From NCBI GenBank assembly GCA_963765125.1, contig CAVXUZ010000004.1:792-64791 (forward strand): a DNA stretch of 64,000 nucleotides, in the 5' to 3' direction. Within the stretch, counting starts at the first letter, position 1. Each line of letters begins with the position of its first letter. This document shows, piece by piece, positions 8,321 through 62,849 of this stretch. Both the position numbers and the translations under genes were made by a program. Source of the stretch: an uncultured candidate division WWE3 bacterium (GTDB taxonomy: Bacteria > Patescibacteriota > WWE3 > UBA101185 > UBA10185). The notes below the pieces were generated by a model, which did no database searches, was not told the origin of the DNA, and was given only the letters and a program-made list of their open reading frames with translations.

Positions 8321-9061
8321 ATGGAACTAAAAGTTAGAACAGGAATAGTAACTGGACGTGAACATCTTGTTTATGGTATTAACTGCCAAGATTCTCTTTT
8401 TGCCAAAACTTTTGAGCACGAGGGATATACATACCATATAGGAGTTGTGTCTGATGGGTGCGGAGAAGGAGAAAGGAGTGAAACTGGAGCCCACTTGGCT
8501 ACAAGTTTTCTCATATATAAAATGGAGAAACTTGTTCGAGATGGGTATTCAATCAAATTTATTTTGAGAAAACTTTATTTCGAATTACTAAGATTTCTCA
8601 AGAAGATACTGACCGCATACGACCTAAAACACTTGCCGGCAGAAGAAGTGGATGTAATTAAAAACCATTTTCTTTTTACAGTTATCGGTTTTATAATCGG
8701 ACCCGATGACACAGTAATATTTGCTGTAGGTGATGGAGTCGTGTTGATAAATGACTTCCTAGATGTCAGAGATCAAAAAAACACTCCTACATATCCTACC
8801 TATCACTTAGTTTCGTCAAAATATCTGAAAAGTGATCGGACATACATTCCAAAAGAATTTGACGTGTACGACGTGAAAACAGAAAATATGCAAAAGCTGG
8901 CTGTAGGAACCGACTCGTGGCAATACGAGCTCGACTCCCTGTTCTTGCTTTTTAATGAAGAGCAAAAAACAACACCTCAGCGCCTAATGAACGTTTTATC
9001 TCAAAAAGAAAAACGCTTCAAAGATGATGCAGCCATAATCACGGTAACAAAAACCGAATAA
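8321..9061 (+). CDS. PP2C-family (PPM) Ser/Thr protein phosphatase
   Basis: VVSDGCGEG and AVGDGVV metal-binding motifs, C-terminal DDAAIITV; strong RBS GGAGAGG. Confidence 0.6.
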   Translation: MELKVRTGIVTGREHLVYGINCQDSLFAKTFEHEGYTYHIGVVSDGCGEGERSETGAHLATSFLIYKMEKLVRDGYSIKFILRKLYFELLRFLKKILTAYDLKHLPAEEVDVIKNHFLFTVIGFIIGPDDTVIFAVGDGVVLINDFLDVRDQKNTPTYPTYHLVSSKYLKSDRTYIPKEFDVYDVKTENMQKLAVGTDSWQYELDSLFLLFNEEQKTTPQRLMNVLSQKEKRFKDDAAIITVTKTE

Positions 9062-9072
9062 AGGAGGCTCAG

Positions 9073-10962
9073 ATGAAAGTATTTGTCGGAGGTCACCTCA
9101 TCAATATGAGTAGCTTAGACGTAATAGGTCCAGGCGGTGAGGGTCTTGTGGTCAAAGCCAAAATCAACGGAAATAAAACTGTTGCACTTAAGGTTTACCA
9201 TGAGAAGTTGCAAACAATAGCACGCGCAAGAAAACTTAAAGCCTTCTTTGCGCAAAAATGGACTTTACCGACAAACAGGATTGCGGTACCAATCGAACCG
9301 GCTTACAACGAAGATAAATCATTAATCATAGGTTTGATAATGCCCTATCTCGGAACCGGCTTCGACGACATTGCACAACTTTCCAATAAAAATATACGAC
9401 TAAGTTATGGCATAAATACCAAAAACGTAGCTCAAATATTTTTAGATGGCCTCGGAACTCTTGAGCAGATCCATTCTAATGGACTAGTGGTTGGTGATCT
9501 TAGCGATCGCAACGTCCTATTCCGAGGAACGGAGATGCTATGGATCGATGTTGACTCCTGGCAGTTTGGTAATTTTCCATGTCCCGTAGCTACAGAGGAA
9601 TACGTTGACCCCAATCTTTACGGGGTTGATCTTCCAAATGCTCCGGCGTTTAAACCTGAAAATGACTGGTATTCCTTCGCTGTCTTATTTTTCAGAAGCC
9701 TCTTAATGGTTCATCCATACGGAGGCGTCCATAAAACAGTAAAAGAATTAAAACGAAGAGCGAAGAGTAGAATCACGGTTTTTGACAAAGACGTGAAATA
9801 CCCAAAGATCGCTTTTTCACCAGACATTTTATCAGACGATTTGGCTCAGGAATTCGACAAGATATTCAGAACTGGCGTAAGGGAAACTTTCCCAAAAAGC
9901 CTAGTCCAAAATTATCTTAATGACCTGACTGAATGTTCAAACTGTCATTCGTGGTACCCACGAAATAGAAAAGGTTGTCCTGTTTGTAACAAACGCACTG
10001 TAGTGATTATCGCAAGAAAAGTTATTGCTAATAAGGGTGTTAGGTCTTTCGAGTTTTTTAAAACCTCAGGCGACATCGTTTACACAAAAGTTAGTAATAA
10101 CAAAATCTTTGTGGTAACTCATGAAAATGGAAAAGCTAAGTTACATACAATCGACCAAAACGGTAACGTTTCAGAAAAACATCTTTCAGATACTTCCGAA
10201 GGTGCCCGTTACACTATGACCGAAGAAATTCTGTCTGTAAATTACGGACACTCACAAGAAATTATCCTGCACGATGTTACATCAAAAAGCGTGAGGCAAA
10301 TAAAGCAAACCGTTACGGAACTTTATGAACCAAACCGTAGGGCAGTCTTTCAAGCAACACAAAATAAAGTCCTTCGCATGATCGGAGGAAATATTCTATC
10401 TATAGAGAAAGGAGGAATGGGAATAATTGAACGATCAATCAGAACTGGTGTTCCTAACCAAACATGGTTTTCCGCAAACGACAGTTACAACGGAATGCAG
10501 CTTTTTGGCTTAATCCAAATACTGCACGAAAAAAGATTCTGGTACCACCTAGATGGGCAGAACTTTGAACCCAGTATTCCAAACTTAGAAATAGACGAGG
10601 TTCTGCTAGACATTTCTGTAAAGTTCTCACATGGAGAAGTATTACTAAGAAGGAAGTCACAGCAAAACGGAGTCGACTTTTTAAGACAAGAAATTGTGAA
10701 CGACAACGGTGAGGTAACTTACTCATCAAGAATTAGGTATGGTGATTATCCGGTACAAGGTATGCACGGGCAGATTTACTCAAACGGTATACTGCTTCAT
10801 GCTACAGACGACGGGATAGTTCAAGAAAAAGTTACTAGCCAAGAGTTCAAGACCTTCAAGCAAACTATGCCTTTTGTTGGAGAAGGAGACATCCTTCACA
10901 AATTTAACAAGGGCATCGTCGTAGTAGATTCAAACTCAATAACATATCTTGAATTAAGATAA
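9073..10962 (+). CDS. Ser/Thr protein kinase-like protein with zinc-ribbon and large C-terminal domain of unknown function
   Basis: Gly-loop GPGGEG, VALK lysine, catalytic loop GDLSDRNVLF, DVDSWQFG, DWYSFAVLF; CSNCHSW...CPVCNK zinc ribbon; RBS AAGGAGG. Confidence 0.65.
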   Translation: MKVFVGGHLINMSSLDVIGPGGEGLVVKAKINGNKTVALKVYHEKLQTIARARKLKAFFAQKWTLPTNRIAVPIEPAYNEDKSLIIGLIMPYLGTGFDDIAQLSNKNIRLSYGINTKNVAQIFLDGLGTLEQIHSNGLVVGDLSDRNVLFRGTEMLWIDVDSWQFGNFPCPVATEEYVDPNLYGVDLPNAPAFKPENDWYSFAVLFFRSLLMVHPYGGVHKTVKELKRRAKSRITVFDKDVKYPKIAFSPDILSDDLAQEFDKIFRTGVRETFPKSLVQNYLNDLTECSNCHSWYPRNRKGCPVCNKRTVVIIARKVIANKGVRSFEFFKTSGDIVYTKVSNNKIFVVTHENGKAKLHTIDQNGNVSEKHLSDTSEGARYTMTEEILSVNYGHSQEIILHDVTSKSVRQIKQTVTELYEPNRRAVFQATQNKVLRMIGGNILSIEKGGMGIIERSIRTGVPNQTWFSANDSYNGMQLFGLIQILHEKRFWYHLDGQNFEPSIPNLEIDEVLLDISVKFSHGEVLLRRKSQQNGVDFLRQEIVNDNGEVTYSSRIRYGDYPVQGMHGQIYSNGILLHATDDGIVQEKVTSQEFKTFKQTMPFVGEGDILHKFNKGIVVVDSNSITYLELR

Positions 10963-21380: not shown

Positions 21381-22325
21381 GTGCCTAATTTTTGGAAAAA
21401 CCTTAAAAAACCATTTACTGTTCTTGCTCCGATGGATGACGTTACCGACGTTGTTTTTAGAGAAATTATCGCAGACATAGCTAGACCTGACGTATTTGTT
21501 ACAGAATTTACAAGCGTCGATGCGATGGTGTCGATAGGTGCAGAAAAAATAAAAAGAAAATTGCAGTTCACAGAAAAACAACGCCCGATAGTTGCACAGA
21601 TCTGGGGAGCAAAACCAGAAAATTATTTTATCGTCGCACAAGAATTAGAAAAATTAGGTTTTAATGGAATTGATATAAATATGGGGTGCCCTGATAAAAA
21701 TGTCGTGAAACTAAAATCTGGTTCAGCGCTCATTAATAAAACAGAATTAGTTAGTGAAATTGTTGACGCGGTTAAAAAAGGAGCGCCTAATACTTCATTA
21801 AGCATAAAAACAAGACTCGACGTTACACCAGAGCTTACAGAAAAATGGATTTCTTATCTTCTTTCTCTAGATATTGATGAACTTACGATTCACGGCCGTG
21901 ACGCGCCCTCTCTTTCTAAAGTTGACGCAAACTGGGACGAAATCGGTAAGGTAGTTAAAGCCCGCAATAAAGCAAAAAAAGATGTTATTGTGGTTGGTAA
22001 CGGCGACGTTAAAGATATTATTGAAGTCGACGAAAAACACAAAAAATATAAAGTTGATGGTGTGATGATTGGTAGAGGTGTATTTCATAATCCTTGGCTC
22101 TTTGATAAAAATACTTGCCGCGAGATCCACTACAAAAAAGAAAGAATAGAACTACTACTCAAACATACGCGACTTTTTGAAAGCATGTGGGGTAAAAACA
22201 AAAACTTTGAAACAATGAAAAAGTTTTTCAAAATCTACATCAAAGAATTTATAGGCGCAGATAAATTAAGACAAAAATTAATGCTATGTAAATCGTACGA
22301 TGAGGTTTATGAAATCTTCTCTTGA
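21381..22325 (+). CDS. dus: tRNA-dihydrouridine synthase
   Basis: LAPMDDVTD N-terminus, TIM-barrel flavoenzyme pattern; true start may be ATG 21432. Confidence 0.7.
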   Translation: MPNFWKNLKKPFTVLAPMDDVTDVVFREIIADIARPDVFVTEFTSVDAMVSIGAEKIKRKLQFTEKQRPIVAQIWGAKPENYFIVAQELEKLGFNGIDINMGCPDKNVVKLKSGSALINKTELVSEIVDAVKKGAPNTSLSIKTRLDVTPELTEKWISYLLSLDIDELTIHGRDAPSLSKVDANWDEIGKVVKARNKAKKDVIVVGNGDVKDIIEVDEKHKKYKVDGVMIGRGVFHNPWLFDKNTCREIHYKKERIELLLKHTRLFESMWGKNKNFETMKKFFKIYIKEFIGADKLRQKLMLCKSYDEVYEIFS

Positions 22326-23810: not shown

Positions 23811-24575
23811 ATGGATCTTATTAAAACGTCTACACACAAAGCGCGTATGGATTTGGCTGAAGAAATATTCTGTAAGATCATGCACGAGAAAAAGAACGAA
23901 ATCTTGGCAGTTGGGTTATATGGCTCCATGGCAAAGCACACCGATACTCCATTTTCAGATATTGAGTTTGATGTAATACCTAAAGAAGAAGATGTTAATT
24001 ATTCTGTGAGCCATATATATAAAGGTATAAAATACGAAATTTGTTACATAAGTAAAAACATATTAATTCAAAATATCCGTAATCCTGCAAATATTGATTG
24101 GCCAAAAACAATTTCAGCCTCTTTAACAGCTAAGCCATTTTACGACCCAACTAACACATTTGAAGAATTTAAAAAAGAATACAACAAAATTATAAAAGCT
24201 GATTTTACTCCATTTTATAAAGATTTGTTCGTTGATGGAATATATGAGTCTATGTGTAAGTTTATTAAAGCTGTTAAACACGGCGATATGTCTTCAGTAA
24301 GATTTTACGCGTATCACTATTTGTTTGATGAATTCATTTGTTTTATTGCAATACTAAATAAAACTTTTATAAACAATGCTGCTACTAGAGGTGTTGACTC
24401 TATAAATATGCCTATTAATTTTAATTCCTATAAAGTGTTTGCAAGATTACTTATAAATGGCGAAGTTGAAAAACCTGACACACTGATTGAGAGTGCATTC
24501 TCCGTTTATAAAGAAATAGAAACATTTATCCTATCAAAGAATATAAAAATAGAAACCGACGAAATAATCCTATAA
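23811..24575 (+). CDS. Kanamycin nucleotidyltransferase ANT(4')-like protein (Pol-beta superfamily NTase)
   Basis: VGLYGSMAKHTDTPFSDIEFDV aligns with the GS...SDIE motif and flanks of ANT(4')-Ia; similar length (254 aa); ...DWP.T motif conserved. Confidence 0.55.
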   Translation: MDLIKTSTHKARMDLAEEIFCKIMHEKKNEILAVGLYGSMAKHTDTPFSDIEFDVIPKEEDVNYSVSHIYKGIKYEICYISKNILIQNIRNPANIDWPKTISASLTAKPFYDPTNTFEEFKKEYNKIIKADFTPFYKDLFVDGIYESMCKFIKAVKHGDMSSVRFYAYHYLFDEFICFIAILNKTFINNAATRGVDSINMPINFNSYKVFARLLINGEVEKPDTLIESAFSVYKEIETFILSKNIKIETDEIIL

Positions 24576-27746: not shown

Positions 27747-28937
27747 TTACTTTTTCACTTCCAGAATGCTGTATCCTTCGACACTGGCTGCAATTATTGG
27801 TGCACCAATTAGTGGTTCAAGAAATTCTCTTATTTCTGAAACTCGTGAATCCTCAATTACTAAGAACATCCTCCCACCTTTAGAAAGCCTACGACGCGCC
27901 TGGGTTAGAATTCTAACAAGGTGCTGGCGTGGTATGTGTAGTGGTGGATTAGTAAGAATTAAATCAAATTCTCCCGAGATTGCCTCAGCACCATCACTAA
28001 GAACCACATTTACACGATCGTTGAGCTCTGCAGCTTTAACGTTTATTACCGTAGAGTCTACTGCGCGAGCGTTGACATCACTTAAAACCAAGTTTGCGCC
28101 TGGATACAGTAATGCCGCCGATATACCTATGTATCCAGAACCGCAGCCCAAATCCCAAATTTTTAAAGGACTCAGGTTGAGCGAGGATACATAACGTATT
28201 AAAGCTGCGCTCCCTAAGTCAACGCCACCTTTTGAGAATCCGTCGTGTCCTGTTTGAATATGGATCACCTTGCCTGCAAATTCATAGGTGTAGCTGTTAT
28301 TTAGAAGCGTGAAATCTACCTTCTTACCATCGCTGGTAAACTTAATCACCCTAGCACCACCTTTACCTCTTGCTACAATTTCATTTTTTATTCCAGTAGC
28401 ATCGGTAATTACTTGCGAAAGATTTTCTGCTCCCTTACTTTTATGACTGATCATGAACAGTATCCCCTGCTTTGAAGAATTTACCAGGTCGATAACCTCC
28501 TCAACTATTGAAGCCTGATTCTGATAAGACTCGTGCACCAAAATACTCACATCGGCGCATTTGCTTATCTTTTTCTCAACAAAAACTTGAACATTATAAA
28601 AAACATTTTCTTCAAGATTTCTGTCGACAAGATCCCTGTTAGCCGTCCATAAAGATATATACGTTTGCATCTTTGGATTCGCTAGGGAAATTAGAGTTGG
28701 CACTAATCCTGTTCCGCCCTCTCTAATAACAACACTTTTTGCTTGCAAGTCTCTCAATGCCTTTAAAACATATTTGACACCTACAAATAACTCAGGAAAT
28801 TCTTTACCAAATTTCTGTATAACATAGTCTCCATTTGGTGTCTTATACAAGGACACTGGTTTTATTTGAACTGGAAGCTCCCCGGTAATAAATCTCCTTT
28901 CGTCATCAGCATTAACGTGATTGCGCTTTATATTCAT
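27747..28937 (-). CDS. rRNA (guanine-N2)-methyltransferase RsmC/RlmG family
   Basis: DLGCGSGYIG motif I, LILTNPPLH motif IV, duplicated MTase-like domain. Confidence 0.7.
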   Translation of the reverse strand: MNIKRNHVNADDERRFITGELPVQIKPVSLYKTPNGDYVIQKFGKEFPELFVGVKYVLKALRDLQAKSVVIREGGTGLVPTLISLANPKMQTYISLWTANRDLVDRNLEENVFYNVQVFVEKKISKCADVSILVHESYQNQASIVEEVIDLVNSSKQGILFMISHKSKGAENLSQVITDATGIKNEIVARGKGGARVIKFTSDGKKVDFTLLNNSYTYEFAGKVIHIQTGHDGFSKGGVDLGSAALIRYVSSLNLSPLKIWDLGCGSGYIGISAALLYPGANLVLSDVNARAVDSTVINVKAAELNDRVNVVLSDGAEAISGEFDLILTNPPLHIPRQHLVRILTQARRRLSKGGRMFLVIEDSRVSEIREFLEPLIGAPIIAASVEGYSILEVKK

Positions 28938-43823: not shown

Positions 43824-44681
43824 TTACATGTACTTCTTAAAGATGTCGGTAAGATCTTTTCTGATTGGATTTGATGCAACCAGTGGATATTGAGAGAGCT
43901 GTGATAATTGTGATTCGTAAGAAGGTTTATCTTCTTCGTAAAGTATTCCCAACGGAACACTTTTTTCACCAAACTCCTGAGATTTCTTAAAAGCAGTTTC
44001 TTTGTTGGTCTTGTCGTAAGTAGAATCTAGATAGTATGTGTTATTGTGATAAAACTCATGACTCAGTGTTTTGTTGAAAGTTACACAAGGCTGCAAAATA
44101 TCTAAAACTGAAATTCCTTTATGCTTGTTTGCTGCAACTATCAAATCTTTAAGTTGAGCCATATCTCCTGTAAATCCACGCGCAACAAATGTAGCACCTG
44201 CTGAAATTGCTAAGGTCAGTGGGTTTAACGGCCAATCGGGATTACCGTCGGGTGTAGATTTTGATTTAAACCCGTGGGGTGAGGCAGGAGACGTTTGCCC
44301 TGTTGTTAAAGCATAAAGTCCGTTGTCATGAAGTAAAATAGTAATATCGTGGTTTCTTCTACACGCATGAATAAAGTGGTTACCACCTTCTCCTAAACAA
44401 TCACCATCCCCAGTAAAAACAAAAACATTGAGCGCGTGATTTGCCATTTTAAGACCAGAAGCAACCGGTATTGCTCGACCGTGCAAACCCTCAACCGCTG
44501 TAATTTTTGTGAAGTTAACAATATGGCCATGGCAACCGATACCTGCTACATATGATGTATTTGTATTATTCCAACCTTCTTGAACTGCTGCCATTTTAAA
44601 CGAAGACCAAAGTGCTAAGTTTCCACAGCCTGGGCACCAATTTGGATTACACGGAGTTTGAAGTTGCGCCATTGTTGTCAT
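43824..44681 (-). CDS. 2-oxoacid:ferredoxin oxidoreductase beta (TPP-binding) subunit
   Basis: CPGCGN, GDGD TPP motif. Confidence 0.85.
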   Translation of the reverse strand: MTTMAQLQTPCNPNWCPGCGNLALWSSFKMAAVQEGWNNTNTSYVAGIGCHGHIVNFTKITAVEGLHGRAIPVASGLKMANHALNVFVFTGDGDCLGEGGNHFIHACRRNHDITILLHDNGLYALTTGQTSPASPHGFKSKSTPDGNPDWPLNPLTLAISAGATFVARGFTGDMAQLKDLIVAANKHKGISVLDILQPCVTFNKTLSHEFYHNNTYYLDSTYDKTNKETAFKKSQEFGEKSVPLGILYEEDKPSYESQLSQLSQYPLVASNPIRKDLTDIFKKYM

Positions 44682-46429
44682 TTCTCTTCTCCCTTCAACA
44701 CTGAATTTATTTTTTCTATAATTTCTTCTACAAAAAATGGGCGACCGTCGTACTTTAAGAAATTATCTTTTATTTCAAAGCCAGTCTTTTCTCTAATAAT
44801 TCCCGCCATATGCCCTGTGTAATTAGCTTCGATATTTATGACATGTTTTGTTTTGCTTAATACTTCGAAAATTCTTTTGGCAGGAAATGGATTTGCCCAT
44901 GTAAGATGCAAATAGTTTACGTTTTCAAATTCATTTATGGCTTGAAGAATGCTTCCCTTGTTGCTACCCCAAGAAACTATTGTTATATCAGCGTTTTCTG
45001 GGCCATACAAAACTGGTTGATCCATATCTTCCCTCTCGCAAGTAATAAGTTTTTGCATTCGCTTTTTCATTTGCTCATTACGATTGTCTATTTCTTCGCT
45101 CGAATAACCTTTTTCGTCGTGCTCGTCTGAATTTGCAATAAAGAAATTTCCTACACCGGGAACAGTACGAGTAGAAATTCCGTCTTCTGATAAATTGTAG
45201 CGTTTAAATTCAGGGTCGAGGTCTAAAGAAAGTTTTCCTCTGTTCACTACAAAATTAGAATTATCAAATACTTCAACGGTTTTATCGTGTTCACAAAGAT
45301 TTTTGTCAATTAGTACAACAACTGGAGTTTGATATTTTTCTGCAAGATTAAATGCTTTTCTCGTAAGGTCAAAAACTTCTTCTATATCTCCTGGTGTTAG
45401 CACAATTCTCGGAAAATCTCCTTGATGTGCATGTAGAACAAATCTCAAATCACCTTGTTCGCTCCAAGTGGGAAGACCGGTAGCTGGTGCACCTCGCTGA
45501 CCTTCAACAATAACTACACCAACTTCGGCAATTCCTGCTAGACCATAAGCCTCAGACATTAATGCGAAACCTCCACCTGAGGTGGAAGTCATTGATCTGG
45601 CGCCTGCAAACGATGCCCCAATAGCCATATTTATCGCGGAAATCTCATCTTCTGGCTGTTTATAAACAAATCCATATTTTTGCTGGTAACTCGTTAAAAA
45701 GTGCAAAATATTAGAAATTGGTGACATTGGATAAATTGCAATAAACTGAACCCCGCCCGCGATTGCACCCATTCCCGCTGCCTCGTTTCCATTTACTACC
45801 ATAAGTGGTTTTCCATTTGGGTAACCTTGCACAGAATTTAGAATGTCTACAACCTTACTATCGTAGTTTTCTTTTGCATATTTATAACCAAGTTCTGCCG
45901 CTTTTAAATCGGCGTTGATAATTTCTTCTGATTTACCTGCGTACTCTTCTCTTACAAACGCTTTTAATATTTCTATATTTCCACCGAGCATTCCCGTGAT
46001 AGCCCCTAGTGCAACACTATTTATCAACAATTCGTCCCCACCTGATTCTTTTGCAAAAGCAGACAAATTTACAGGGTAAAGATTAATTCCCGCGGGAACT
46101 TTTGATACGTCTATCTTTTTATCGCCGTCATAAATTATTCCTGCGCCATCAGTCAAACTATCTAGATGAAAATCAATTCCGTCTTGATTAAGCGCAACTA
46201 GAAGATCTGTTTTATTACTTGGACCTTCAACTTTTTCTTTTGAAATATTAATCTGCATCACATTGTGTCCACCTCTAATAATTGAAGGATATTCGATATA
46301 GTTAAAAATGTAACACCCGGATCTGGCGGCAAATCGAGCAAAAAGGATCCCTGATGACTTAATACCCTGTCCAGCCATACCGGCTATTTTTACAGAATAT
46401 ATTTTTTGTTTTGTTAATGTTTTTTTCAT
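44678..46429 (-). CDS. 2-oxoacid:ferredoxin oxidoreductase alpha subunit (gamma-alpha fused)
   Basis: N-terminal gamma-type domain (GMAGQGIKSSG) + alpha pyrimidine-binding domain; overlaps beta start. Confidence 0.85.
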   Translation of the reverse strand: MKKTLTKQKIYSVKIAGMAGQGIKSSGILFARFAARSGCYIFNYIEYPSIIRGGHNVMQINISKEKVEGPSNKTDLLVALNQDGIDFHLDSLTDGAGIIYDGDKKIDVSKVPAGINLYPVNLSAFAKESGGDELLINSVALGAITGMLGGNIEILKAFVREEYAGKSEEIINADLKAAELGYKYAKENYDSKVVDILNSVQGYPNGKPLMVVNGNEAAGMGAIAGGVQFIAIYPMSPISNILHFLTSYQQKYGFVYKQPEDEISAINMAIGASFAGARSMTSTSGGGFALMSEAYGLAGIAEVGVVIVEGQRGAPATGLPTWSEQGDLRFVLHAHQGDFPRIVLTPGDIEEVFDLTRKAFNLAEKYQTPVVVLIDKNLCEHDKTVEVFDNSNFVVNRGKLSLDLDPEFKRYNLSEDGISTRTVPGVGNFFIANSDEHDEKGYSSEEIDNRNEQMKKRMQKLITCEREDMDQPVLYGPENADITIVSWGSNKGSILQAINEFENVNYLHLTWANPFPAKRIFEVLSKTKHVINIEANYTGHMAGIIREKTGFEIKDNFLKYDGRPFFVEEIIEKINSVLKGEEK

Positions 46430-49290
46430 TAAACGAATCTCTCAGAGTAAATTCTAGACTCCTGACAACCAGTTTGTTTTAGTAAATCAGTCGCACCTTT
46501 AATCATAGCAGGATGCCCACACAAATACGCCGAACAATTCATTGTATCTTTAAAATTTTGTTTAACTAAGTCGGTATTAAATCCTCTTGGGCCTGTCCAC
46601 GCAGGACTTGGCTCATATAAAACGTATTCGTAATTAAATTGTGGATATTTTTGCTTCAAATTGTCAAAAGTATCTTTCCAAAATATTTCTTCTTCACGTG
46701 TTAAACCATAATATAAAGTGTGTGCGGCTGTTGAATGTTCTTCTTCAAGTGACGTTTCGATCATACATCTTAATGCACTAATTCCAGAACCTGTTGCTAA
46801 AAATATTTTGTGGTCTGAACCATCGTCATTATGTAATACAAATACTCCAAATGGTCCTAAGAATTGCATTTTCTCTCCAACTTTTATTTTGTCAAAAAAT
46901 TGTGAACCAGGACCTCCAGGTCTTGTATCAACTAAGAGCGCGTATTTATTTGGACCGAGTTTTGATGCAATCGAGTAAGCTCTAATTGCTGTATCAGAAA
47001 CTTTTACGCTGACGTACTGACCAGCTTTAAAATCAAAAGGCTCGGCTGTCTCAAATTCAAAATAGTTGAATTTTGTTGCTGGCACAGTGTGAACGGTGCA
47101 TGTAGCTTCCTTAAGTTTTGGCCCCACTGCTGGTTTTTTACTTTCTTTGATGATGATTTTTCCATCAACTGCCCAAACGTTATCTTTTGTGACTATTACA
47201 GGATTAATTTCTATATCTGTAGCTTCTGGAATAAGTTCACCCATCTTTCCAACCCTAACGATTAAATCGTAAAGTTTTTCTAATGCGTACTGCGCAACGC
47301 CATCTTTATCTTTCAATAGTGAATAGATTTTTGAACCTTCAACAATCTTTTTTGCGTCGGTTAATTCTACAGGTAATAAATGAATATTCTTATCACCAAT
47401 CAAATCTGCATAATGACCACCTGCTCCAAAAAGAAGCAACGGACCAAATGTCGGGTCGGTTTTTATTCCAATAATTATCTCAACGCCACTCATTACATCT
47501 TTTTGTATTTGAAACGAAATTGTTTTTTTAATTTCGGTACTTAATTTTTCAGCGTTTAATAAAAGATCCATCCAGGCTTTTTCTAAACCTACGTTATCAA
47601 TAATATTTAAGATAACTCCACCGACTTTGTCTTTGTGTATAAGCCCTGGCGCAGACAACTTTAGAACAACTGGCCAACCATTTTCTGCAGCAAACGTTTT
47701 TGCTTCGTCGATACTCACTACATTTTTTGTCGGCGGTGTGTTTATTCCTACAACTTTAAATATTGAGTCGACATCGACGTTACCTACTGTTGTACTCCCT
47801 TCAGTAACTGTTTTTTGAATTATTGTTCTGATAACTCCAGTTTCGGGTGTAATTTCAAAAGGTGTACCAGCAAGTTCTTCTGGGTTGTTGATCTGACGCT
47901 TTTTAAACTGCCACATCGCGGAAAGTGCCTTAATAGCTCTTTCAGGAAATTCAAAAGACGGTATTTTATATTTATTGAGAGCCTTGGTACCTTGCTCGAC
48001 GGCTCTTCCACCGATAAATGAACAAAGTATTGGTTTTGCATATTTTTTAGATAACTCTCCTATTACTTGCGCAGTTTTTTCTGCTTCGGTCATTAGTTGA
48101 GGGGTAAGTAATACAATCAAAGAATCAACTTCGCTGTTTTGTAAAACTATTTCTATTGCTTCGGCAAACCTGTCTGAAAGTGCGTCACCCAAAACGTCTA
48201 CCGGATTAATAATGCTTGCCGATCTTGGTAACACATTTTGTAATTTAGTTTTTGTTGCGTCATCAAATTGAGCGAACTCAAGACCACTAGTTACAACCGA
48301 GTCCGCGCTAATAACTGCCGGCCCACCTGCATTAGAGATTACTGCAACTTTTGGTCCTAATGGAGAATTTTCCCATGCAAACGCACGTGAATAATCAAAA
48401 AATTCTTCGAGTGTGTAACATCTAATCGCACCTGATTGCTTTAAAACTTCGTCGAGTACTGCGTCTTCGCCTGCGATTGCCCCTGTGTGTGATTGCATTG
48501 CTTTTGCAGCCGCTGTGGTTTTTCCTGGCTTAATAATTAATACGGGATCTTTTTTTGATATTTCTGAAATGTAACGTAAAAGTTCTGGGCCATTTGCTAT
48601 CGACTCTAAATATAAACCGATCGGCCTCACATTTGATAACCCCTCAGGAAGATGTGTAACCAGCTGGTCTTGGCTCTGTCTTAAGAAATTAAAAAGAATA
48701 TCGTTTTCAGTGATGCCTGCTTTATTCCCTAAAGTTACAAATTCACTAACCCCAAGACCTGTTGTGTTGCAATAATCAACCAAACTCGCTGCAATTGCAC
48801 CAGATTGTGTTATAAATCTCAAATTTCCAGATTCTTGTACTTTTTCAGCAAACGTGGCGTTCAAAGAGATTTGTGTATTAACAAAACCTAAACAGTTAGG
48901 ACCTAGCAAATTAATTGAAAACTTCTTTGCTATATCGATTAGATTTTTTTCTAGCTTTTCTCCTTCTGCACCGATTTCTTTAAACCCCGCGGACAACACC
49001 ACAACATTTTTTACTCCCTTTTCGCCGAGTTTAGTTACCGCATCACCTACAACAGTTGAAGGAATGCATACTATGGCGAGTTCTGGAACTTCTGGTATCG
49101 CAGATACGTCAACAAACGCAGTAAATCCTTGAATATCTGTAGCGTTTGGGTTAATAGGAAATATTTTTCCACTATAACCAGATTCTTTTATGTTTTTTAC
49201 AACTATTGAACCTAGTTTTTCTGGTGATCTTGATGCTCCGATAATCGCTATCGATTTGGGATAGAAAAAATTCGTCAACTCTGTGGGCAT
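46429..49290 (-). CDS. ADP-forming acetyl-CoA synthetase (fused alpha/beta, NDP-forming acyl-CoA ligase) with C-terminal FNR-like FAD/NAD(P)-binding reductase domain (~last 230 aa, nt ~46429-47130)
   Basis: CoA-binding and ligase-CoA domains, then an ATP-grasp beta domain. The C-terminus carries RAYSIAS (RxYS), GGPGS, GPFG, ATGSGISAL (GxGxxP-like) and YLCGHPAM motifs of the ferredoxin-NADP+ reductase family. Confidence 0.8.
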   Translation of the reverse strand: MPTELTNFFYPKSIAIIGASRSPEKLGSIVVKNIKESGYSGKIFPINPNATDIQGFTAFVDVSAIPEVPELAIVCIPSTVVGDAVTKLGEKGVKNVVVLSAGFKEIGAEGEKLEKNLIDIAKKFSINLLGPNCLGFVNTQISLNATFAEKVQESGNLRFITQSGAIAASLVDYCNTTGLGVSEFVTLGNKAGITENDILFNFLRQSQDQLVTHLPEGLSNVRPIGLYLESIANGPELLRYISEISKKDPVLIIKPGKTTAAAKAMQSHTGAIAGEDAVLDEVLKQSGAIRCYTLEEFFDYSRAFAWENSPLGPKVAVISNAGGPAVISADSVVTSGLEFAQFDDATKTKLQNVLPRSASIINPVDVLGDALSDRFAEAIEIVLQNSEVDSLIVLLTPQLMTEAEKTAQVIGELSKKYAKPILCSFIGGRAVEQGTKALNKYKIPSFEFPERAIKALSAMWQFKKRQINNPEELAGTPFEITPETGVIRTIIQKTVTEGSTTVGNVDVDSIFKVVGINTPPTKNVVSIDEAKTFAAENGWPVVLKLSAPGLIHKDKVGGVILNIIDNVGLEKAWMDLLLNAEKLSTEIKKTISFQIQKDVMSGVEIIIGIKTDPTFGPLLLFGAGGHYADLIGDKNIHLLPVELTDAKKIVEGSKIYSLLKDKDGVAQYALEKLYDLIVRVGKMGELIPEATDIEINPVIVTKDNVWAVDGKIIIKESKKPAVGPKLKEATCTVHTVPATKFNYFEFETAEPFDFKAGQYVSVKVSDTAIRAYSIASKLGPNKYALLVDTRPGGPGSQFFDKIKVGEKMQFLGPFGVFVLHNDDGSDHKIFLATGSGISALRCMIETSLEEEHSTAAHTLYYGLTREEEIFWKDTFDNLKQKYPQFNYEYVLYEPSPAWTGPRGFNTDLVKQNFKDTMNCSAYLCGHPAMIKGATDLLKQTGCQESRIYSERFV

Positions 49291-50720: not shown

Positions 50721-52268
50721 ATGGAAATAAACAAAATATTGCCATTTATCGCGATTTTCTTAGTTTTAGCCTTAATTACTGTAATTGTACTTTTCTCACC
50801 AAGGACTAAGGGCGAGAAAATAGTCGAAAACATCATCAACACAGCAAAAAACAACATTTCTGAAAAAATAAGAAAAAGTTCAGTTGCAGGTCAATTTTAT
50901 ACAGACGACCCACAAAAACTGTCTTTAGAGCTAGAAAACTATATTAATTCCGCCAGTAAAATACAAACGCAAGGCAAGTTAAGAATACTTGTTTCACCGC
51001 ACGCAGGAACACAATACTCTGGAAAAACCGCGGGGGCTGCGTTTAAGCAAATTGATCCTAAAAATTATAAAAGGGTGATTATTCTTGGAGTAAGCCACGA
51101 GAATGTTATTAATAAAGCTGCTGTAATTTCAAAAGGATACTGGGATACCCCTCTTGGTAAATTACATATTGACGAAGAAGCCGCTAAAAAAATAGTTAAC
51201 GGTCATAATATTATCGAGAATGATACTGCACATAACAACGAGCACTCAATTGAATTAATTGGAATATTTGTTAAATACTTGTTTGGTGATGTAAAAATAG
51301 TACCTATTCTTCTCGGTCAAACTGATGATACATTATTAAATTCTTTAGCGTACACTATTGCAAATAATTTTGACGATGAAACATTACTCATCGTAAGTAC
51401 TGATCTTTCGCACTATCCAAATTGGGACGATGCGGTGAAATCAGATACTAATGTTATTAATTCTCTACTTACAGGAAATATAAATACTTTTGAAAATGCA
51501 GTTTTAGAAAATAAATCTGCAAATTATCCCAATCACAGTACATCAGCCTGTGGCTACGAACCACTAAGAGTCGCACTTAAAATATCAGATATTTTAAAGT
51601 TTAAAGAAATTAAAAAAATTGATTACACAAATTCAGGTGATATTACTGGGGACAAATCTCGTGTTGTGGGATACGGCGCTGTAGGCTTCTATAGCAACGA
51701 TATTACGCCCGTCACCTTAAGCCAAAATGCCAAACAAGAACTTCTAAGACTTGCACGCGCTACGATTGAAAGTTATGTAAAAAGTAACACTATTTTAAAT
51801 TTTGCACCGATAAATGATGAGCTCTTTTTACCGCTCGGCGCATTTGTAACATTAACAGAAAATGATCAGCTTCGTGGCTGCATCGGAGAATTTGAACCTA
51901 ATTACCCTCTATACGAAGTCATTCAAAGCGTGTCGATTTCTTCGGCTACCAAAGATCCTAGATTTAGACCAGTCACTACAGCAGAATTAGATAAAATTAA
52001 TATTGAGATCTCCACGATGACTCCTCAAGTACAGATATATGATTGGAAAGATATTAAACTAGGAGTTCATGGTGTAAGAATACAAAACGGTAATAAATCT
52101 GGAACTTTTCTTCCACAGGTAGCAACAGATAACAAATGGGATTTAGAAACGTTTTTACAAAATCTTTGTACTGAAAAAGCTAATCTTGATGAGGACTGTT
52201 ATAAAAATCCAGAAACAAAGATATACGTATTTGAAACTGACATTTTTGAAGAAACTCACGAAAACTAG
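50721..52268 (+). CDS. Fused AmmeMemoRadiSam system protein B (MEMO1-like) + protein A (AMMECR1 domain)
   Basis: SPHAGTQYSG...GVSH Memo-like N-terminal half; LGAFVTLTE...LRGCIGEFEP AMMECR1 signature in C-terminal half. Confidence 0.7.
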   Translation: MEINKILPFIAIFLVLALITVIVLFSPRTKGEKIVENIINTAKNNISEKIRKSSVAGQFYTDDPQKLSLELENYINSASKIQTQGKLRILVSPHAGTQYSGKTAGAAFKQIDPKNYKRVIILGVSHENVINKAAVISKGYWDTPLGKLHIDEEAAKKIVNGHNIIENDTAHNNEHSIELIGIFVKYLFGDVKIVPILLGQTDDTLLNSLAYTIANNFDDETLLIVSTDLSHYPNWDDAVKSDTNVINSLLTGNINTFENAVLENKSANYPNHSTSACGYEPLRVALKISDILKFKEIKKIDYTNSGDITGDKSRVVGYGAVGFYSNDITPVTLSQNAKQELLRLARATIESYVKSNTILNFAPINDELFLPLGAFVTLTENDQLRGCIGEFEPNYPLYEVIQSVSISSATKDPRFRPVTTAELDKINIEISTMTPQVQIYDWKDIKLGVHGVRIQNGNKSGTFLPQVATDNKWDLETFLQNLCTEKANLDEDCYKNPETKIYVFETDIFEETHEN

Positions 52269-55810: not shown

Positions 55811-56893
55811 TCAAACCTTGATTAAGTCCGTCAACATCGTGTAAAAACGCATGTTATGTATAGTTGCAAGCCTGTAAGCAGAAACGTCGCCAAGTTTAAA
55901 TAAATGTCTGAGATACGCTTTTGAAAAATATTTACACATCTCACAATCGCAATACTTACTAATCGGGATCTTATCAGATTCGTATTTTGCCTTATCAATA
56001 TAAATATATTCGTAAAAATTACTGCTTTTTTTAAAATTAATTTTTTTAGGGTCTTGTTTGAAGATGTACAACCTTCTGTGTCTCGCATCACGAGTTGGTA
56101 AAGTACAATCGAATATATCCCATCCCATTTGATAAAGAGCAGAAATGTCATCCGGCCTCCCAACACCGAGCGCAAATTTAATTTTATCGTTTGGAATTAA
56201 GTCAGCAATATATTTTGAAAGCTTAAGGTCCATTTTTCCCTCTGCATTTACCACGTAACCACCATAGCCGTAGGCATCAAAATTTAGTTTCACTAAAGCC
56301 TCCGCACATCTCTTTCGCTCTTCTTTAAAATATCCGCCTTGAATTACTGCCAACAAAAACGGGCGAGTTTTATCAGTCATTTTTCTTTTTTTAACCTGTC
56401 GATCAAATTCTTTTTTGCTCTTCTCAGCCCACAGAATTGTTCTATCTACGCTGTTTTCCGCTGTTTTTGTATCTGCGTCTGGGGGAGTAAAATCATCAAG
56501 ACAAATAACAATATCAGATTCAATTTCAAACTGAACTTTTATTGACTCTTCTGGCGTAAATATTTCTTTTTTGCCACCACCGATAATAAATTCAACACCC
56601 GCGTCAGTAATTTTTCCCCCACTACTATTTCTATGAATTAAAGAAAACACCTGCCAACCCCCACTGTCAGAAACAACCAGCCCGTCATAATTCATAAAAC
56701 CTTTAATTCCACCAAACTTTTTTAGAATTTTTGTTCCAGGAGACGTTTGTAAATGATAGGTATTTACTACAACACCTTTAACTTGTGCATTTTTTAAATC
56801 TTGAGAATCAACACTTTTAGTTACACCTCTAGTTGCATCGGGTAAATAAATCGGTAGGCAGTACTTTTTACCTTTTATTATTACTTCTTTCAT
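55811..56893 (-). CDS. tgt: Queuine tRNA-ribosyltransferase (tRNA-guanine transglycosylase)
   Basis: TIM-barrel TGT pattern with C-terminal zinc site CDCEMCKYFSKAYLRHL. Confidence 0.85.
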   Translation of the reverse strand: MKEVIIKGKKYCLPIYLPDATRGVTKSVDSQDLKNAQVKGVVVNTYHLQTSPGTKILKKFGGIKGFMNYDGLVVSDSGGWQVFSLIHRNSSGGKITDAGVEFIIGGGKKEIFTPEESIKVQFEIESDIVICLDDFTPPDADTKTAENSVDRTILWAEKSKKEFDRQVKKRKMTDKTRPFLLAVIQGGYFKEERKRCAEALVKLNFDAYGYGGYVVNAEGKMDLKLSKYIADLIPNDKIKFALGVGRPDDISALYQMGWDIFDCTLPTRDARHRRLYIFKQDPKKINFKKSSNFYEYIYIDKAKYESDKIPISKYCDCEMCKYFSKAYLRHLFKLGDVSAYRLATIHNMRFYTMLTDLIKV

Positions 56894-60884: not shown

Positions 60885-61253
60885 TTACTCGAATGTACTT
60901 ACCAGCTTTACTGTAAACTTCATACGCTTTTTATTACCGTCTGGACCAATAATCTCTAGGTTTCCTGACTCTTTATAATAGTCAGCTAGTTCTTGGTATA
61001 AAATCTCTTTGTTCTCTGTGAGGTCATCTTTCAATTCCTTGATCTGCTGTTCGTATTCTGCAAATTTAGGGTCTGAAAGTATCTTTGATTTTCTAATTTT
61101 TAAGTCTTCTCTGATTTTTGAAGCGTCTTCTTGAAAACCAACAAAGGCGTGGTCATCTTCTAATACCTCGTCGTAGAGAGCTTTTATCTTCTTCATCTCG
61201 TCTGAGATGTCTTTTACTATTTGTAACCTATTTTTTATTGATTCTGTAGACAT
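60885..61253 (-). CDS. Hypothetical coiled-coil protein
   Basis: ORF. Confidence 0.45.
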   Translation of the reverse strand: MSTESIKNRLQIVKDISDEMKKIKALYDEVLEDDHAFVGFQEDASKIREDLKIRKSKILSDPKFAEYEQQIKELKDDLTENKEILYQELADYYKESGNLEIIGPDGNKKRMKFTVKLVSTFE

Positions 61254-61340: not shown

Positions 61341-62165
61341 TTAGTGATTTTTATTATATTTTGAAGAAAAATCGTATCTTTTTAGGTAGTTTTTTCCGAA
61401 TATTTGCTCCATTTTTTGAGCATTTTTTCTAGAATATTCTCCATTTTTCGTACGTATGAGTTTACTCACAAAGCCCTCGCAACCTAGTTTATTGCAGATA
61501 TCCTGGGACAATGACCTTACGTAAATACCTTTTGAGGTTTCTACTTCTATTCTAATTTTGTTAAAGATTTTGCCTTTATTTTTATGCAAAATTATCTCCC
61601 AATTTGAAATGATATTTTCTTGTCTAAATTCTCCGCTAACTTTTTTTATATTAGAAATTATTTTTTTAATTTGATCCTCAACAGGCACTTGCTCAAACGA
61701 AATTACTTTTAAATTATAAATTTCCCCACTAATTTCGGGCGCTTGAACAGAAATATTTTCTCTCCCATACTCGTGCAAGTGTTTTCCTAAAACTTTTTTT
61801 GTAGAAAAAAGCGGGGCTCTCTGTGTGTATGAACCAATAAAACTGCTTAAAACATTTTCAACCTCGTCTTTTGTTATTTTGGTTTGGTAAATTTCATCTC
61901 TATTCGTTAAACCTAACCCGTCGAATGTATCCGTACTAATTCCTAAACATATTTCAAAATCATAAGTCTTGTGAAACTTGGCAAGTTCCTTTTTATTTAA
62001 TCTATTTTCATCTAAAAGTACTATTATTACTCCCTCAGCCATCGGATCCAGCGTACCCGTATGAGCTGTTTTTACACCAAAAACATCACTAACCCGCTGT
62101 GTAATAAGGTGCGTAGAAAACCCAATCGGTTGCCATATAGGTATAATGTTTTTTGCTTCTTCCAT
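61341..62165 (-). CDS. truB: tRNA pseudouridine(55) synthase
   Basis: HTGTLDPMAEGV catalytic Asp motif. Confidence 0.8.
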   Translation of the reverse strand: MEEAKNIIPIWQPIGFSTHLITQRVSDVFGVKTAHTGTLDPMAEGVIIVLLDENRLNKKELAKFHKTYDFEICLGISTDTFDGLGLTNRDEIYQTKITKDEVENVLSSFIGSYTQRAPLFSTKKVLGKHLHEYGRENISVQAPEISGEIYNLKVISFEQVPVEDQIKKIISNIKKVSGEFRQENIISNWEIILHKNKGKIFNKIRIEVETSKGIYVRSLSQDICNKLGCEGFVSKLIRTKNGEYSRKNAQKMEQIFGKNYLKRYDFSSKYNKNH

Positions 62166-62187
62166 AGCTTTATCTTATCATTGCAGT

Positions 62188-62817
62188 GTGAAAACTATAA
62201 AAGGCAATAAAGAAGTTGAAATAGGCAAAGAAGAGCTTTTAAAACTAAGCGAGGGGTTTAAAAAAGTCGTTTTAGACATAGGAACAGGAGATGGACGATA
62301 CGTTTATAAAAATGCGATTGAAAATCCAAATACTTTTTATATAGGAGTAGACCCAAACGCAAAGCAATTAGAAATCTACTCAAAGACTGCGTTGAGAAAA
62401 AAATTGGCGAATGTTTTATTTGTAGTTGGTTCAATTGAGATAATGCCACAAGAGTTAGAAAGTTTTGCTAATAAAATAACTGTAAACTTACCTTGGGGAT
62501 CTTTACTCAAAGAAATTGTCAAACCAAATCCTTCTATTCTTAAAAAATATTTAAAGCAAGACGGAGAATTAGAAATACTTCTCGGTTACGATAGAAACTT
62601 AGAGCCCTCTGAAACTGCAAGATTAGAAATACCAGAACTCGATGATGAACTTTTAGCAAACACGATAGTTCCCGCTTTTCAAAATGACGGATTCTCTTTG
62701 GTCGAAAAATCAGAAATTTCAAGAACTTCACTAAAAAAAGTGAACACCACTTGGGGAAACAAACTTACTTTTGGTAAGGAGAGAAAGATATTTAGATTAA
62801 AATTTGCATTAAAATAG
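62188..62817 (+). CDS. 16S rRNA (adenine1408-N1)-methyltransferase NpmA/KamB-family homolog
   Basis: From GTG 62188 the protein (VKTIKGNKEVEIG...VVLDIGTGDGRYVYKNAIENPNTFYIGVDP...NLPWGSLLKEIVKPN...WGNKLTFGKERKIFRL) is collinear with my recollection of NpmA (LILKGTKTVDL...HIDLGTGDGRNIYKLAINDQNTFYIGIDP...LFPWGTLLEYVIKPN...WAKRLAFGRKRSFFRV) and has a similar length (~210 aa). Confidence 0.55.
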   Translation: MKTIKGNKEVEIGKEELLKLSEGFKKVVLDIGTGDGRYVYKNAIENPNTFYIGVDPNAKQLEIYSKTALRKKLANVLFVVGSIEIMPQELESFANKITVNLPWGSLLKEIVKPNPSILKKYLKQDGELEILLGYDRNLEPSETARLEIPELDDELLANTIVPAFQNDGFSLVEKSEISRTSLKKVNTTWGNKLTFGKERKIFRLKFALK

Positions 62818-62849
62818 ACAACCCGCATCACATACACTACTATTTAATT

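Follow-up and report, generated by a model that had tools for sequence, protein, structure and literature searches.

A predicted 16S rRNA A1408 methyltransferase of the NpmA/Kam family encoded divergently to truB in candidate division WWE3

We analysed a stretch of 64,000 nucleotides from an uncultured candidate division WWE3 bacterium (assembly GCA_963765125.1, contig CAVXUZ010000004.1, positions 792 to 64,791), hereafter called the window. This 64-kb window is AT-rich, with a GC content of 0.367. Close to its end lies a gene for a protein of 209 amino acids (aa) that belongs to the NpmA/Kam family of 16S rRNA A1408 methyltransferases. The gene is divergently paired with truB, which is in turn followed by a gene for a charged protein of 122 aa (Table 1). 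A product that is identical over the 209 aa and that has the same GTG start is already on record in NCBI/ENA, from a contig of 294 kb. The methyltransferase gene has a GC content of 0.325 and a GC content at third codon positions (GC3) of 0.248, compared to 0.322 and 0.273 for truB, and it resembles in this respect the other long genes of the window.

The start codon of the methyltransferase gene was placed at GTG 62188, whereas a mechanical list of open reading frames (ORFs) places it at ATG 62146, which would result in a protein of 223 aa. The GTG start is supported because the homologues all begin there: the alignment column of GTG 62188 contains the first residue in all of them, and their N-termini read M(K/R)x(V/I)xG(N)K. 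We rejected the start at ATG 62146, as it would add 14 residues that have no counterpart in the homologues and would be located upstream of a conserved -10 box. This position of the putative promoter speaks independently for GTG 62188. The original prediction for this stretch had also preferred GTG 62188 over the listed start, and both the homologue starts and the position of the -10 box bear this out. Nothing supports three antisense ORFs within the methyltransferase gene (62258-62449, 62540-62731 and 62679-62837), which we rejected as shadow ORFs of the AT-rich coding strand.

We compared the protein to profile and sequence databases. The Pfam family PF24675 (NpmA), which has a gathering score of 60 bits, is matched with an E-value of 2.6e-54 and 184.2 bits, and the match extends from residue 3 to residue 204 of the protein and over positions 2-210 of the 214 in the profile. 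The next Pfam matches are generic, with 39 bits for Methyltransf_31 and 30 bits (E 5e-7) for the TrmB-type Methyltransf_4 (PF02390); the generic and TrmB matches are confined to residues ~25-100, the half of the protein that binds S-adenosylmethionine (SAM). Among the NCBIfam models, the best matches are in rank order NpmA, NpmB, WarA and KamB, which are all A1408 enzymes, and the TrmB model is weakly matched (E 9e-9). The scores stay far below the allele cut-offs of the four best models (NpmA 127 vs 470 bits, NpmB 124 vs 460, WarA 98 vs 305 and KamB 75 vs 350). The protein is therefore a member of the family and none of the named enzymes.

A phmmer search against the PDB sequences gave the same family. 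All ten matches with an E-value up to 2e-14 are A1408 methyltransferases, and the next match has an E-value of 0.09. The ten include UncKam (7JLZ, E 1.3e-55), NpmA (~1e-38) and NpmB1 (4.8e-36), plus Kmr, CacKam and KamB. The original prediction had described the product as a homologue of the NpmA/KamB family and had proposed a comparison with NpmA, KamB and Kmr. In this comparison all three were matched, and the Pfam score of 184 bits for PF24675 compares to at most 39 bits for any other family, so that no other class I methyltransferase family matches better. Furthermore, the prediction had listed four motif blocks at the spacing found in NpmA, and all four were recovered collinearly in the 209-aa protein: D30-I-G-T-G-D-G-R37, N48-T-F-Y-I-G-V-D-P56 (with residue numbers as in NpmA), L101-P-W103-G-S-L-L-K-E-I-V-K-P-N114 and W189-G-N-K-L-T-F-G-K-E-R199-K-I-F. 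Several homologues carry the annotation '16S rRNA (adenine(1408)-N(1))-methyltransferase' of the Joint Genome Institute (JGI).

The predicted structure was compared to solved structures in the same way. The family fold is described as a class I seven-stranded SAM-methyltransferase to which a beta-hairpin is added at the N-terminus and in which the beta5/6 and beta6/7 linkers are extended (PMC4705659). We built an AlphaFold2 model of the 209-aa protein on 67 homologues, which reached a mean predicted local distance difference test (pLDDT) score of 96.5 and a predicted template modelling (pTM) score of 0.92. In this predicted model the family fold is found, including the N-terminal beta-hairpin (strands E2-5 and E8-11). 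When the model was compared to the PDB with Foldseek, the top match was NpmA (3MTE), with a template modelling (TM) score of 0.92, a root-mean-square deviation of 2.1 Å and an E-value of 4e-25. Ranks 1-19 consist of A1408 methyltransferases only, and TrmB and generic methyltransferases follow. The E-value changes from 1e-16 to 1e-10 before the first fold relative outside the family, which is TrmB (TM 0.61-0.67, E 1e-10).

To evaluate the active site, residues reported in the literature were located in the 209-aa protein and in 50 sequences from its WWE3 clade. In NpmA, which has a basic beta2/3 linker, the base is positioned by W197, and the phosphate of A1408 is held by R207 with support from E146; the SAM pocket of the family involves a D30-type Asp, D55, E88 and S195 (PMC4705659). 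A1408 is intercalated between W107 and W197 of NpmA with F105 nearby, and SAM is contacted by T33, G34, D55, P56, E88, T109, L110, N38, S195 and L196 (PMC12340973). Five NpmA residues (D30, D55, E88, T109 and S195) have been studied by alanine substitution (PMC3061052). In our protein, the residues expected for SAM binding are all present, namely D30, G32-T33-G34-D35-G36, D55, E84 and T187, the last at the position of NpmA S195. Ten residues are conserved in 50/50 sequences of the clade (D30, G32, T33, G34, G36, P102, W103, G104, W189 and R199). Conservation is slightly lower for E139, which corresponds to NpmA E146 (48/50), for D55 (47/50) and for E84, which corresponds to NpmA E88 (43/50). 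W103 and W189 are also invariant in two further alignments (A1 and A2). The beta2/3 linker is basic (K66, R70, K71 and K72), with the clade consensus YSKKAxRKKL and a T at the position of NpmA K67. Nothing in these alignments suggests decay of the gene, as the predicted catalytic apparatus is fixed while the rest of the protein has diverged to ~45% identity.

Table 1. Position of the methyltransferase gene, its motifs, its neighbours and the putative promoter elements in the window.
Feature	Position	Strand	Description
NpmA/Kam-family methyltransferase, coding sequence	62188..62817	+	GTG start; TAG stop (62815-62817) included; 209 aa; from ORF and translation
SAM-binding motif I, DIGTGDGR, codons D30-R37	62275..62298	+	D30 = NpmA D30 / CacKam D36; GTGDG = GxGxG loop
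P102-W103-G104 codons	62491..62499	+	W103 = NpmA W107, TGG 62494-62496; one of the two A1408-sandwiching tryptophans
beta6/7-linker WGNKLTFGKER, W189-R199	62752..62784	+	W189 = NpmA W197; R199 = NpmA R207
-10-like box TATCAT	62176..62181	+	followed by exactly 6 nt, then GTG 62188
-10-like box TAAGAT	62172..62177	-	followed by 6 nt, then the truB ATG; 2-bp overlap with the methyltransferase -10 box
-35-like element TTGCTT	62153..62158	+	17 nt upstream of TATCAT, inside truB codons 3-5; weak (3/6 match), putative
truB, tRNA pseudouridine-55 synthase	61341..62165	-	Pfam TruB_N E 1.5e-29, TIGR00431 E 2.4e-36; divergent syntenic neighbour
122-aa protein, charged, probably helical	60885..61253	-	downstream of truB; no significant Pfam match; lineage-specific

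The weak Methyltransf_4/TrmB matches (Pfam 5e-7, NCBIfam 9e-9) and the matches to generic models could also be explained if the gene encoded a different class I methyltransferase that has only the SAM motif in common with the family, for instance a TrmB-like tRNA m7G46 enzyme or an enzyme acting on small molecules. However, these matches amount to 30-39 bits on the SAM half, compared to 184 bits for the full-length NpmA model, and the beta6/7 motif W..(K/R)L.FG..R and the tryptophan of PWG are present and invariant. The structural comparison points in the same direction, with a TM score of 0.61-0.67 and an E-value of 1e-10 for TrmB versus 0.92 and 4e-25 for NpmA. Profile and fold comparisons thus led us to discard an identity as TrmB or as another methyltransferase, which we hold to be very improbable. 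By all criteria of sequence and predicted structure, the 209-aa protein is an intact member of the Kam/NpmA (A1408 methyltransferase) family, and from its sequence it is likely to function as a SAM-dependent methyltransferase of the Kam/NpmA type.

Next to the family membership, the distribution of the gene informs about its origin. When each GTDB species was represented by one genome, a scan found 482 loci that encode relatives of the methyltransferase. The best 47 of the 482 loci, at 38-50% identity, come from metagenome-assembled genomes (MAGs) that are labelled candidate division WWE3, Patescibacteria or generic 'Saccharibacteria', and they are followed by relatives from Pyrinomonadaceae (Acidobacteria) and Firmicutes. 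About half of the Patescibacteria loci have truB directly beside the methyltransferase gene in divergent orientation, followed by a homologue of the 122-aa protein; in ~8 further Patescibacteria loci this homologue directly abuts the methyltransferase gene. With tblastn, homologues of the 122-aa protein were found to adjoin truB or the methyltransferase gene in ~30 Patescibacteria loci, at 29-56% identity. Conservation of the membrane protein that is encoded downstream of the methyltransferase was not detectable in the relatives, and it was for this reason left out of the conserved block. As judged from these gene orders, the conserved block is the methyltransferase gene with the divergent truB and the gene for the 122-aa protein.

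The methyltransferase and TruB have diverged to a similar extent and in a correlated way. Over the 26 loci with both proteins, mean divergence is 0.574 for the methyltransferase and 0.56 for TruB; the pairwise distances of the two proteins are correlated with a Pearson coefficient of 0.73, a value that is reached in 0/5000 permutations of a Mantel test. For the methyltransferase and for TruB alike, the five loci nearest to the window include L001, L004, L011 and L002. To estimate prevalence, we used a sample that was chosen regardless of the methyltransferase: ten homologues from a TruB search, on contigs of at least 59 kb without a matching methyltransferase record. A PF24675 gene lies at most 1.5 kb upstream of truB in all ten loci and is directly divergent in eight of them.

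In a neighbour-joining (NJ) tree, which was calculated without bootstrap or other support values, the window protein and all Patescibacteria sequences form one clade next to NpmA and the Firmicutes homologues. NpmB1 is found among the Acidobacteria, and CacKam and Kmr are placed further out. The original prediction had suggested that the gene might belong to an evolutionary reservoir of this resistance family, and the idea is compatible with the position of the clade beside NpmA and the Firmicutes, as drawn in a tree that has no such values.

The similarity to clinical enzymes raises the question of a recent acquisition. That NpmA and NpmB rank first among the named NCBIfam models would be expected if the gene were a recently acquired mobile resistance gene of the clinical NpmA/NpmB kind that came to lie beside truB by chance. 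Yet the allele cut-offs of NpmA and NpmB are missed by far, the identity to NpmA is ~36% and the composition equals that of the neighbouring genes. Around the methyltransferase gene, no flanking repeats were found beyond AT-rich chance matches, and a tblastn search against 72,556 plasmids yielded no match to the methyltransferase. Among more than 40 neighbouring ORFs of the window that were scanned, there are no genes for transposases, integrases or other mobile elements; the neighbouring ORFs encode housekeeping functions such as tgt, a ROK kinase, UppS, a polyprenyl synthase, BipA, HisRS, Ddl, PFOR and a hydrogenase, among others. In addition, the truB synteny and the co-divergence with TruB are kept at 40-50% identity. 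As neither plasmid occurrence nor repeats, deviating composition or a patchy distribution mark the gene, we rejected a mobile resistance determinant and consider this explanation extremely improbable.

Another known context of such enzymes is self-protection of an aminoglycoside-making host, as in the case of KamB and Kmr, and the family was indeed first known from aminoglycoside producers (PMC4705659). For the gene studied here, however, no genes of an aminoglycoside-biosynthesis type were found among the ORFs scanned in the 64-kb window, truB and housekeeping genes make up its conserved surroundings, and the genomes of WWE3 are small and metabolically reduced (PMC8651080). On these three grounds we rejected producer self-resistance, to which we assign hardly any probability. 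Taken together, the truB synteny, the co-divergence, the presence in all ten truB-anchored loci and the lack of repeats, of a plasmid relative and of mobile genes lead us to conclude from the genome comparison that the methyltransferase gene is native, ancient, vertically inherited and close to core in the WWE3 lineage. The earlier descriptions of the gene as chromosomal and intrinsic agree well with the truB synteny, the co-divergence and the ten truB-anchored loci.

The close pairing with truB extends to the sequence between the two genes. The truB ATG (62165-62163) and the GTG 62188 of the methyltransferase gene are separated by 22 bp (AGCTTTATCTTATCATTGCAGT). The divergent arrangement with truB that had been described in the original prediction is thus confirmed, whereas the overlap of the two genes is not, as only a start at ATG 62146 would produce it. 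The spacer contains a -10-like box for each of the two genes (Table 1). No Shine-Dalgarno (SD) sequence is present ahead of GTG 62188, and an SD-like motif was found in 1 of the 46 orthologous loci. In these 46 loci, a TANNNT box upstream of the methyltransferase gene is separated from the start by 6 nt in 28 cases and by 7 nt in 6 cases. Other spacings occur in 1-3 loci each, except for a secondary peak of 19 at 11 nt, which is due to the overlapping region of the truB-strand box. Where truB is divergent (31 loci), the spacer has a length of exactly 22 bp in 13 loci and of 23-25 bp in 6 loci; the box on the methyltransferase strand lies at 6 nt in 21 of these loci, and for the box on the truB strand a distance of 6 nt was counted in 17 loci and one of 7 nt in 5. 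The TTTTGC core of the -35-like element recurs upstream of the orthologues.

The geometry of the boxes would on both strands be that of a leaderless mRNA, which begins at the start codon. This suggests that the 22-bp spacer is a compact bidirectional leaderless promoter that the methyltransferase gene and truB have in common. The putative methyltransferase promoter was not among the calls of a generic sigma-70 scan, since the -35 element matches at 3/6 positions, and the case for a promoter rests on the positional conservation across orthologues. A search of a literature collection for leaderless transcription in the Candidate Phyla Radiation (CPR) found no paper. Similar boxes occur elsewhere in the window: a TANNNT box lies exactly 6 nt before the first start codon in 12 of the 55 long ORFs, with 1.35 expected per position, and 7 nt before the start in 5 more, while ~14 of the 55 have an SD-like motif instead. 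The leaderless-type geometry thus looks to be genome-wide. The gene downstream of the methyltransferase, for instance, has the arrangement TAGACA-17-TACTAT (62815-62843), which is followed by 6 nt and GTG 62850.

Based on the NpmA-30S complex (PMC4705659), we can outline how the enzyme would act. The gene would be expressed constitutively and leaderless, probably from the 22-bp bidirectional promoter in common with truB. The basic beta2/3 linker (K66, R70, K71 and K72) would dock on a tertiary surface of the 16S rRNA in the mature 30S subunit, after which the beta5/6 and beta6/7 linkers would close. A1408 would be flipped out of helix 44 (h44) and sandwiched by W103 and W189, with R199, braced by E139, holding its phosphate. 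SAM, bound by D30, the GTGDG loop (G32-G36), D55, E84 and T187, would then give its methyl group to N1 of A1408. By analogy with NpmA, we infer A1408 as the target nucleotide and methylation of N1 on the assembled 30S as the reaction. The ribosomes of the host would then carry N1-methylated A1408 (m1A1408) and be insensitive to aminoglycosides of the kanamycin, neomycin, gentamicin and apramycin types, so that a resistance phenotype is expected by the same analogy. According to a passage in an earlier study, m1A1408 blocks the binding of 4,5-/4,6-disubstituted 2-deoxystreptamines and of apramycin (PMC5716097).

Several observations weigh against this outline. The WWE3 clade differs from NpmA at contact positions (N38->Y/F, F105->L, R153->L and L196->T), and its beta2/3 linker is 4 residues shorter than that of NpmA. 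Moreover, the presence of A1408 in the host 16S rRNA was assumed from its universal conservation in bacteria, as the window contains no 16S rRNA: in an Rfam scan of the whole 64 kb, no family reached its gathering score, and no tRNA, rRNA, riboswitch or other known RNA was detected. A further observation comes from passages of a preprint of July 2026 in which a codon-optimised npmA-like gene of WWE3 in pET-22b was introduced into E. coli BL21(DE3), where the minimum inhibitory concentrations (MICs) of amikacin, kanamycin, tobramycin and gentamicin did not change (bioRxiv 10.64898/2026.07.13.738296). In the same passages, its authors consider such WWE3 genes unlikely to be primarily resistance genes. 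In these passages neither expression of the protein nor methylation of the rRNA is described as verified, and the Methods interchange the accession labels (10.64898/2026.07.13.738296). Since the protein is by sequence and predicted structure a bona fide Kam-family enzyme, the reported lack of a phenotype cannot be read as a lack of function without controls for expression and methylation. We regard the MIC result as real yet weak counter-evidence.

The same observations can be explained by an enzyme of the same family and fold that serves as a housekeeping ribosome modification, in decoding or in 30S maturation, and not in resistance; it might be specific to the 30S subunit of WWE3 and inactive on the ribosomes of E. 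coli. The gene is core, vertically inherited and coupled to truB, which itself encodes an RNA-modification enzyme, and the methyltransferase evolves at the rate of TruB. The truB coupling and this evolutionary rate point to a housekeeping character. The clade-specific changes at the rRNA-contact positions would fit as well, as would two points from the passages of the preprint, namely the WWE3 homologue without an MIC shift in E. coli and the argument that fermentative CPR cells import aminoglycosides poorly (10.64898/2026.07.13.738296). However, the chemistry would still result in m1A1408, which according to the passage cited above blocks aminoglycoside binding on its own (PMC5716097), and resistance would therefore follow whatever the 'purpose' of the modification. 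In addition, the depositors of UncKam, a member of the clade, name it a 30S A1408 methyltransferase, and a homologue of ANT(4')-I lies 38 kb away in the same window, which hints at real exposure to aminoglycosides. We consider a housekeeping function in place of resistance unlikely, with a clearly larger share of probability than the other alternatives discussed here. Our own proposal is that the decoding centre would constitutively carry m1A1408 throughout the class WWE3 (Katanobacteria), made by an enzyme that would be co-expressed with TruB from the conserved 22-bp bidirectional leaderless promoter, and that these genes would form an ancient sister pool of the NpmA type. In this full form we put it forward tentatively, as a serious possibility and not as our expectation.

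Some other genes of the window are of interest in their own right. The ANT(4')-I-like protein, also described as kanamycin-nucleotidyltransferase-like, has 254 aa (23811-24575, + strand) and is the second homologue of an aminoglycoside-resistance family in the window. It matches Pfam KNTase_C (E 5.6e-8) and Polbeta, the PDB entry 1KNY (E 3.9e-12) and, over its full length, NCBIfam ANT_4p_I (E 5e-30, 105 bits, below the cut-off of 350 bits). The metal-binding motif GS...SDIE and the equivalents of E145 and K149 are conserved in its alignment. Besides the methyltransferase, the same 64 kb contain several RNA-modification genes: truB, tgt (55811-56893, - strand, E 1.2e-86), Dus (21381-22325, + strand, E 1.5e-52) and a gene for a two-domain RsmC/RlmG-like MTS methyltransferase (27747-28937, - strand), which matches the RsmC model with an E-value of 7e-19, below its cut-off.

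Further genes encode unusual domain combinations. A fusion protein of 953 aa (46429-49290, - strand) combines domains of the type of ADP-forming acetyl-CoA synthetase (CoA_binding, Succ_CoA_lig, Ligase_CoA_2 and ATP-grasp_5) with the oxidoreductase domains FAD_binding_6 and NAD_binding_1 at its C-terminus, and its gene is located directly upstream of a PFOR-type oxidoreductase gene (44678-46429). Another fusion (50721-52268, + strand, 515 aa) joins a Memo-like domain (E 3e-62) and AMMECR1 (E 6e-50). The stretch with the highest GC content of the window (0.41; 8321-10962, + strand) encodes a PP2C-type phosphatase (E 7e-14) and, directly after it, a protein of 629 aa with a Ser/Thr kinase domain (E 2e-8).

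Both the enzyme family and surveys of the CPR resistome are already known, and a crystal structure exists for a member of the same clade. For annotation our finding is routine, as public pipelines already give homologues the name of an A1408 methyltransferase. What is added here is the core status and vertical inheritance in WWE3, as judged from the genomes, and the coupling to truB via a conserved 22-bp spacer that resembles a bidirectional leaderless promoter. NpmA gives pan-aminoglycoside resistance, which makes the family important in the clinic, and the WWE3 gene adds to the map of the natural reservoirs of the NpmA family. If our proposal is true, m1A1408 would be a native feature of the ribosome in a whole lineage, beyond producer self-defence or an acquired trait. 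In that case the ribosomes of a whole bacterial class would be natively 'aminoglycoside-proof', and the class would hold an ancient pool of genes that is sister to the NpmA-type genes of Firmicutes and pathogens. Furthermore, the natural sequences have diverged by ~50% with all catalytic residues fixed, which makes them material for work on how the 30S is recognised and for the design of inhibitors. The gene also bears on a live question that arises from the CPR resistome surveys and from the preprint: whether the 'resistance-like' methyltransferases of CPR bacteria are resistance genes.

Lastly, we compared the protein to known enzymes, beginning with the most distant. Outside the family, the closest class I methyltransferase is TrmB (tRNA m7G46, PF02390); it has the SAM-binding half in common, with a structural TM score of ~0.65, but lacks the elements PWG and W..RL.FG..R that hold the substrate. 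KamB, Kmr and CacKam (3MQ2, 4RWZ/4RX1 and 4X1O/5BW4) have the fold, the invariant pair of tryptophans and the SAM motif in common with the window protein, whereas they are more distant in sequence (E 1e-14 to 1e-31, 24-33% identity) and come from high-GC hosts (Actinobacteria and Sorangium). Unlike the native WWE3 gene, KamB is the self-resistance enzyme of a producer. A different dependence on arginines of the beta6/7-linker is reported for these enzymes (PMC4705659).

NpmB1 (7EHF) is a family member with a Foldseek TM score of 0.85, and it groups with the Pyrinomonadaceae in the NJ tree and not with the WWE3 clade. NpmA (3MTE, 3P2E and 4OX9) is of the same family, length and fold and also has a basic beta2/3 linker. 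D30, D55 and P56 have identical residue numbers in both proteins, and W107/W197, R207, E146 and E88 are conserved. NpmA differs in that it is ~36% identical and is an acquired, plasmid-borne enzyme from a clinical isolate of E. coli, whereas the WWE3 gene is native and vertically inherited. From NpmA to the window protein, the substitutions are N38->Y, F105->L, R153->L and L196->T, together with the deletion of 4 residues in the beta2/3 linker.

The closest solved relative is UncKam (7JLZ), which is ~44-50% identical and collinear over the full length. It has features of the clade, with Y at the position of NpmA N38, L at F105 and a short beta2/3 linker. The differences are a divergence of ~50%, an E at the position of D55 and a gene that abuts the homologue of the 122-aa protein rather than truB. 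A search of a literature collection for 7JLZ and UncKam found no paper that names either. UncKam reportedly is one of the 'hypothetical' Kam enzymes for which Witek and Conn found resistance to kanamycin and apramycin as well as modification of A1408 (BBA, 2014). The title of the PDB entry reads 'Crystal structure of 30S ribosomal A1408 methyltransferase from an uncultured bacterium (UncKam)'. All 210 residues shown (210/210, 100%) are identical to the product of a gene on a Patescibacteria MAG contig (locus L019, CAZEAL010000168.1 1514-2140). As this gene is placed inside the WWE3 clade in our tree, a crystal structure from the same clade as the window protein already exists.

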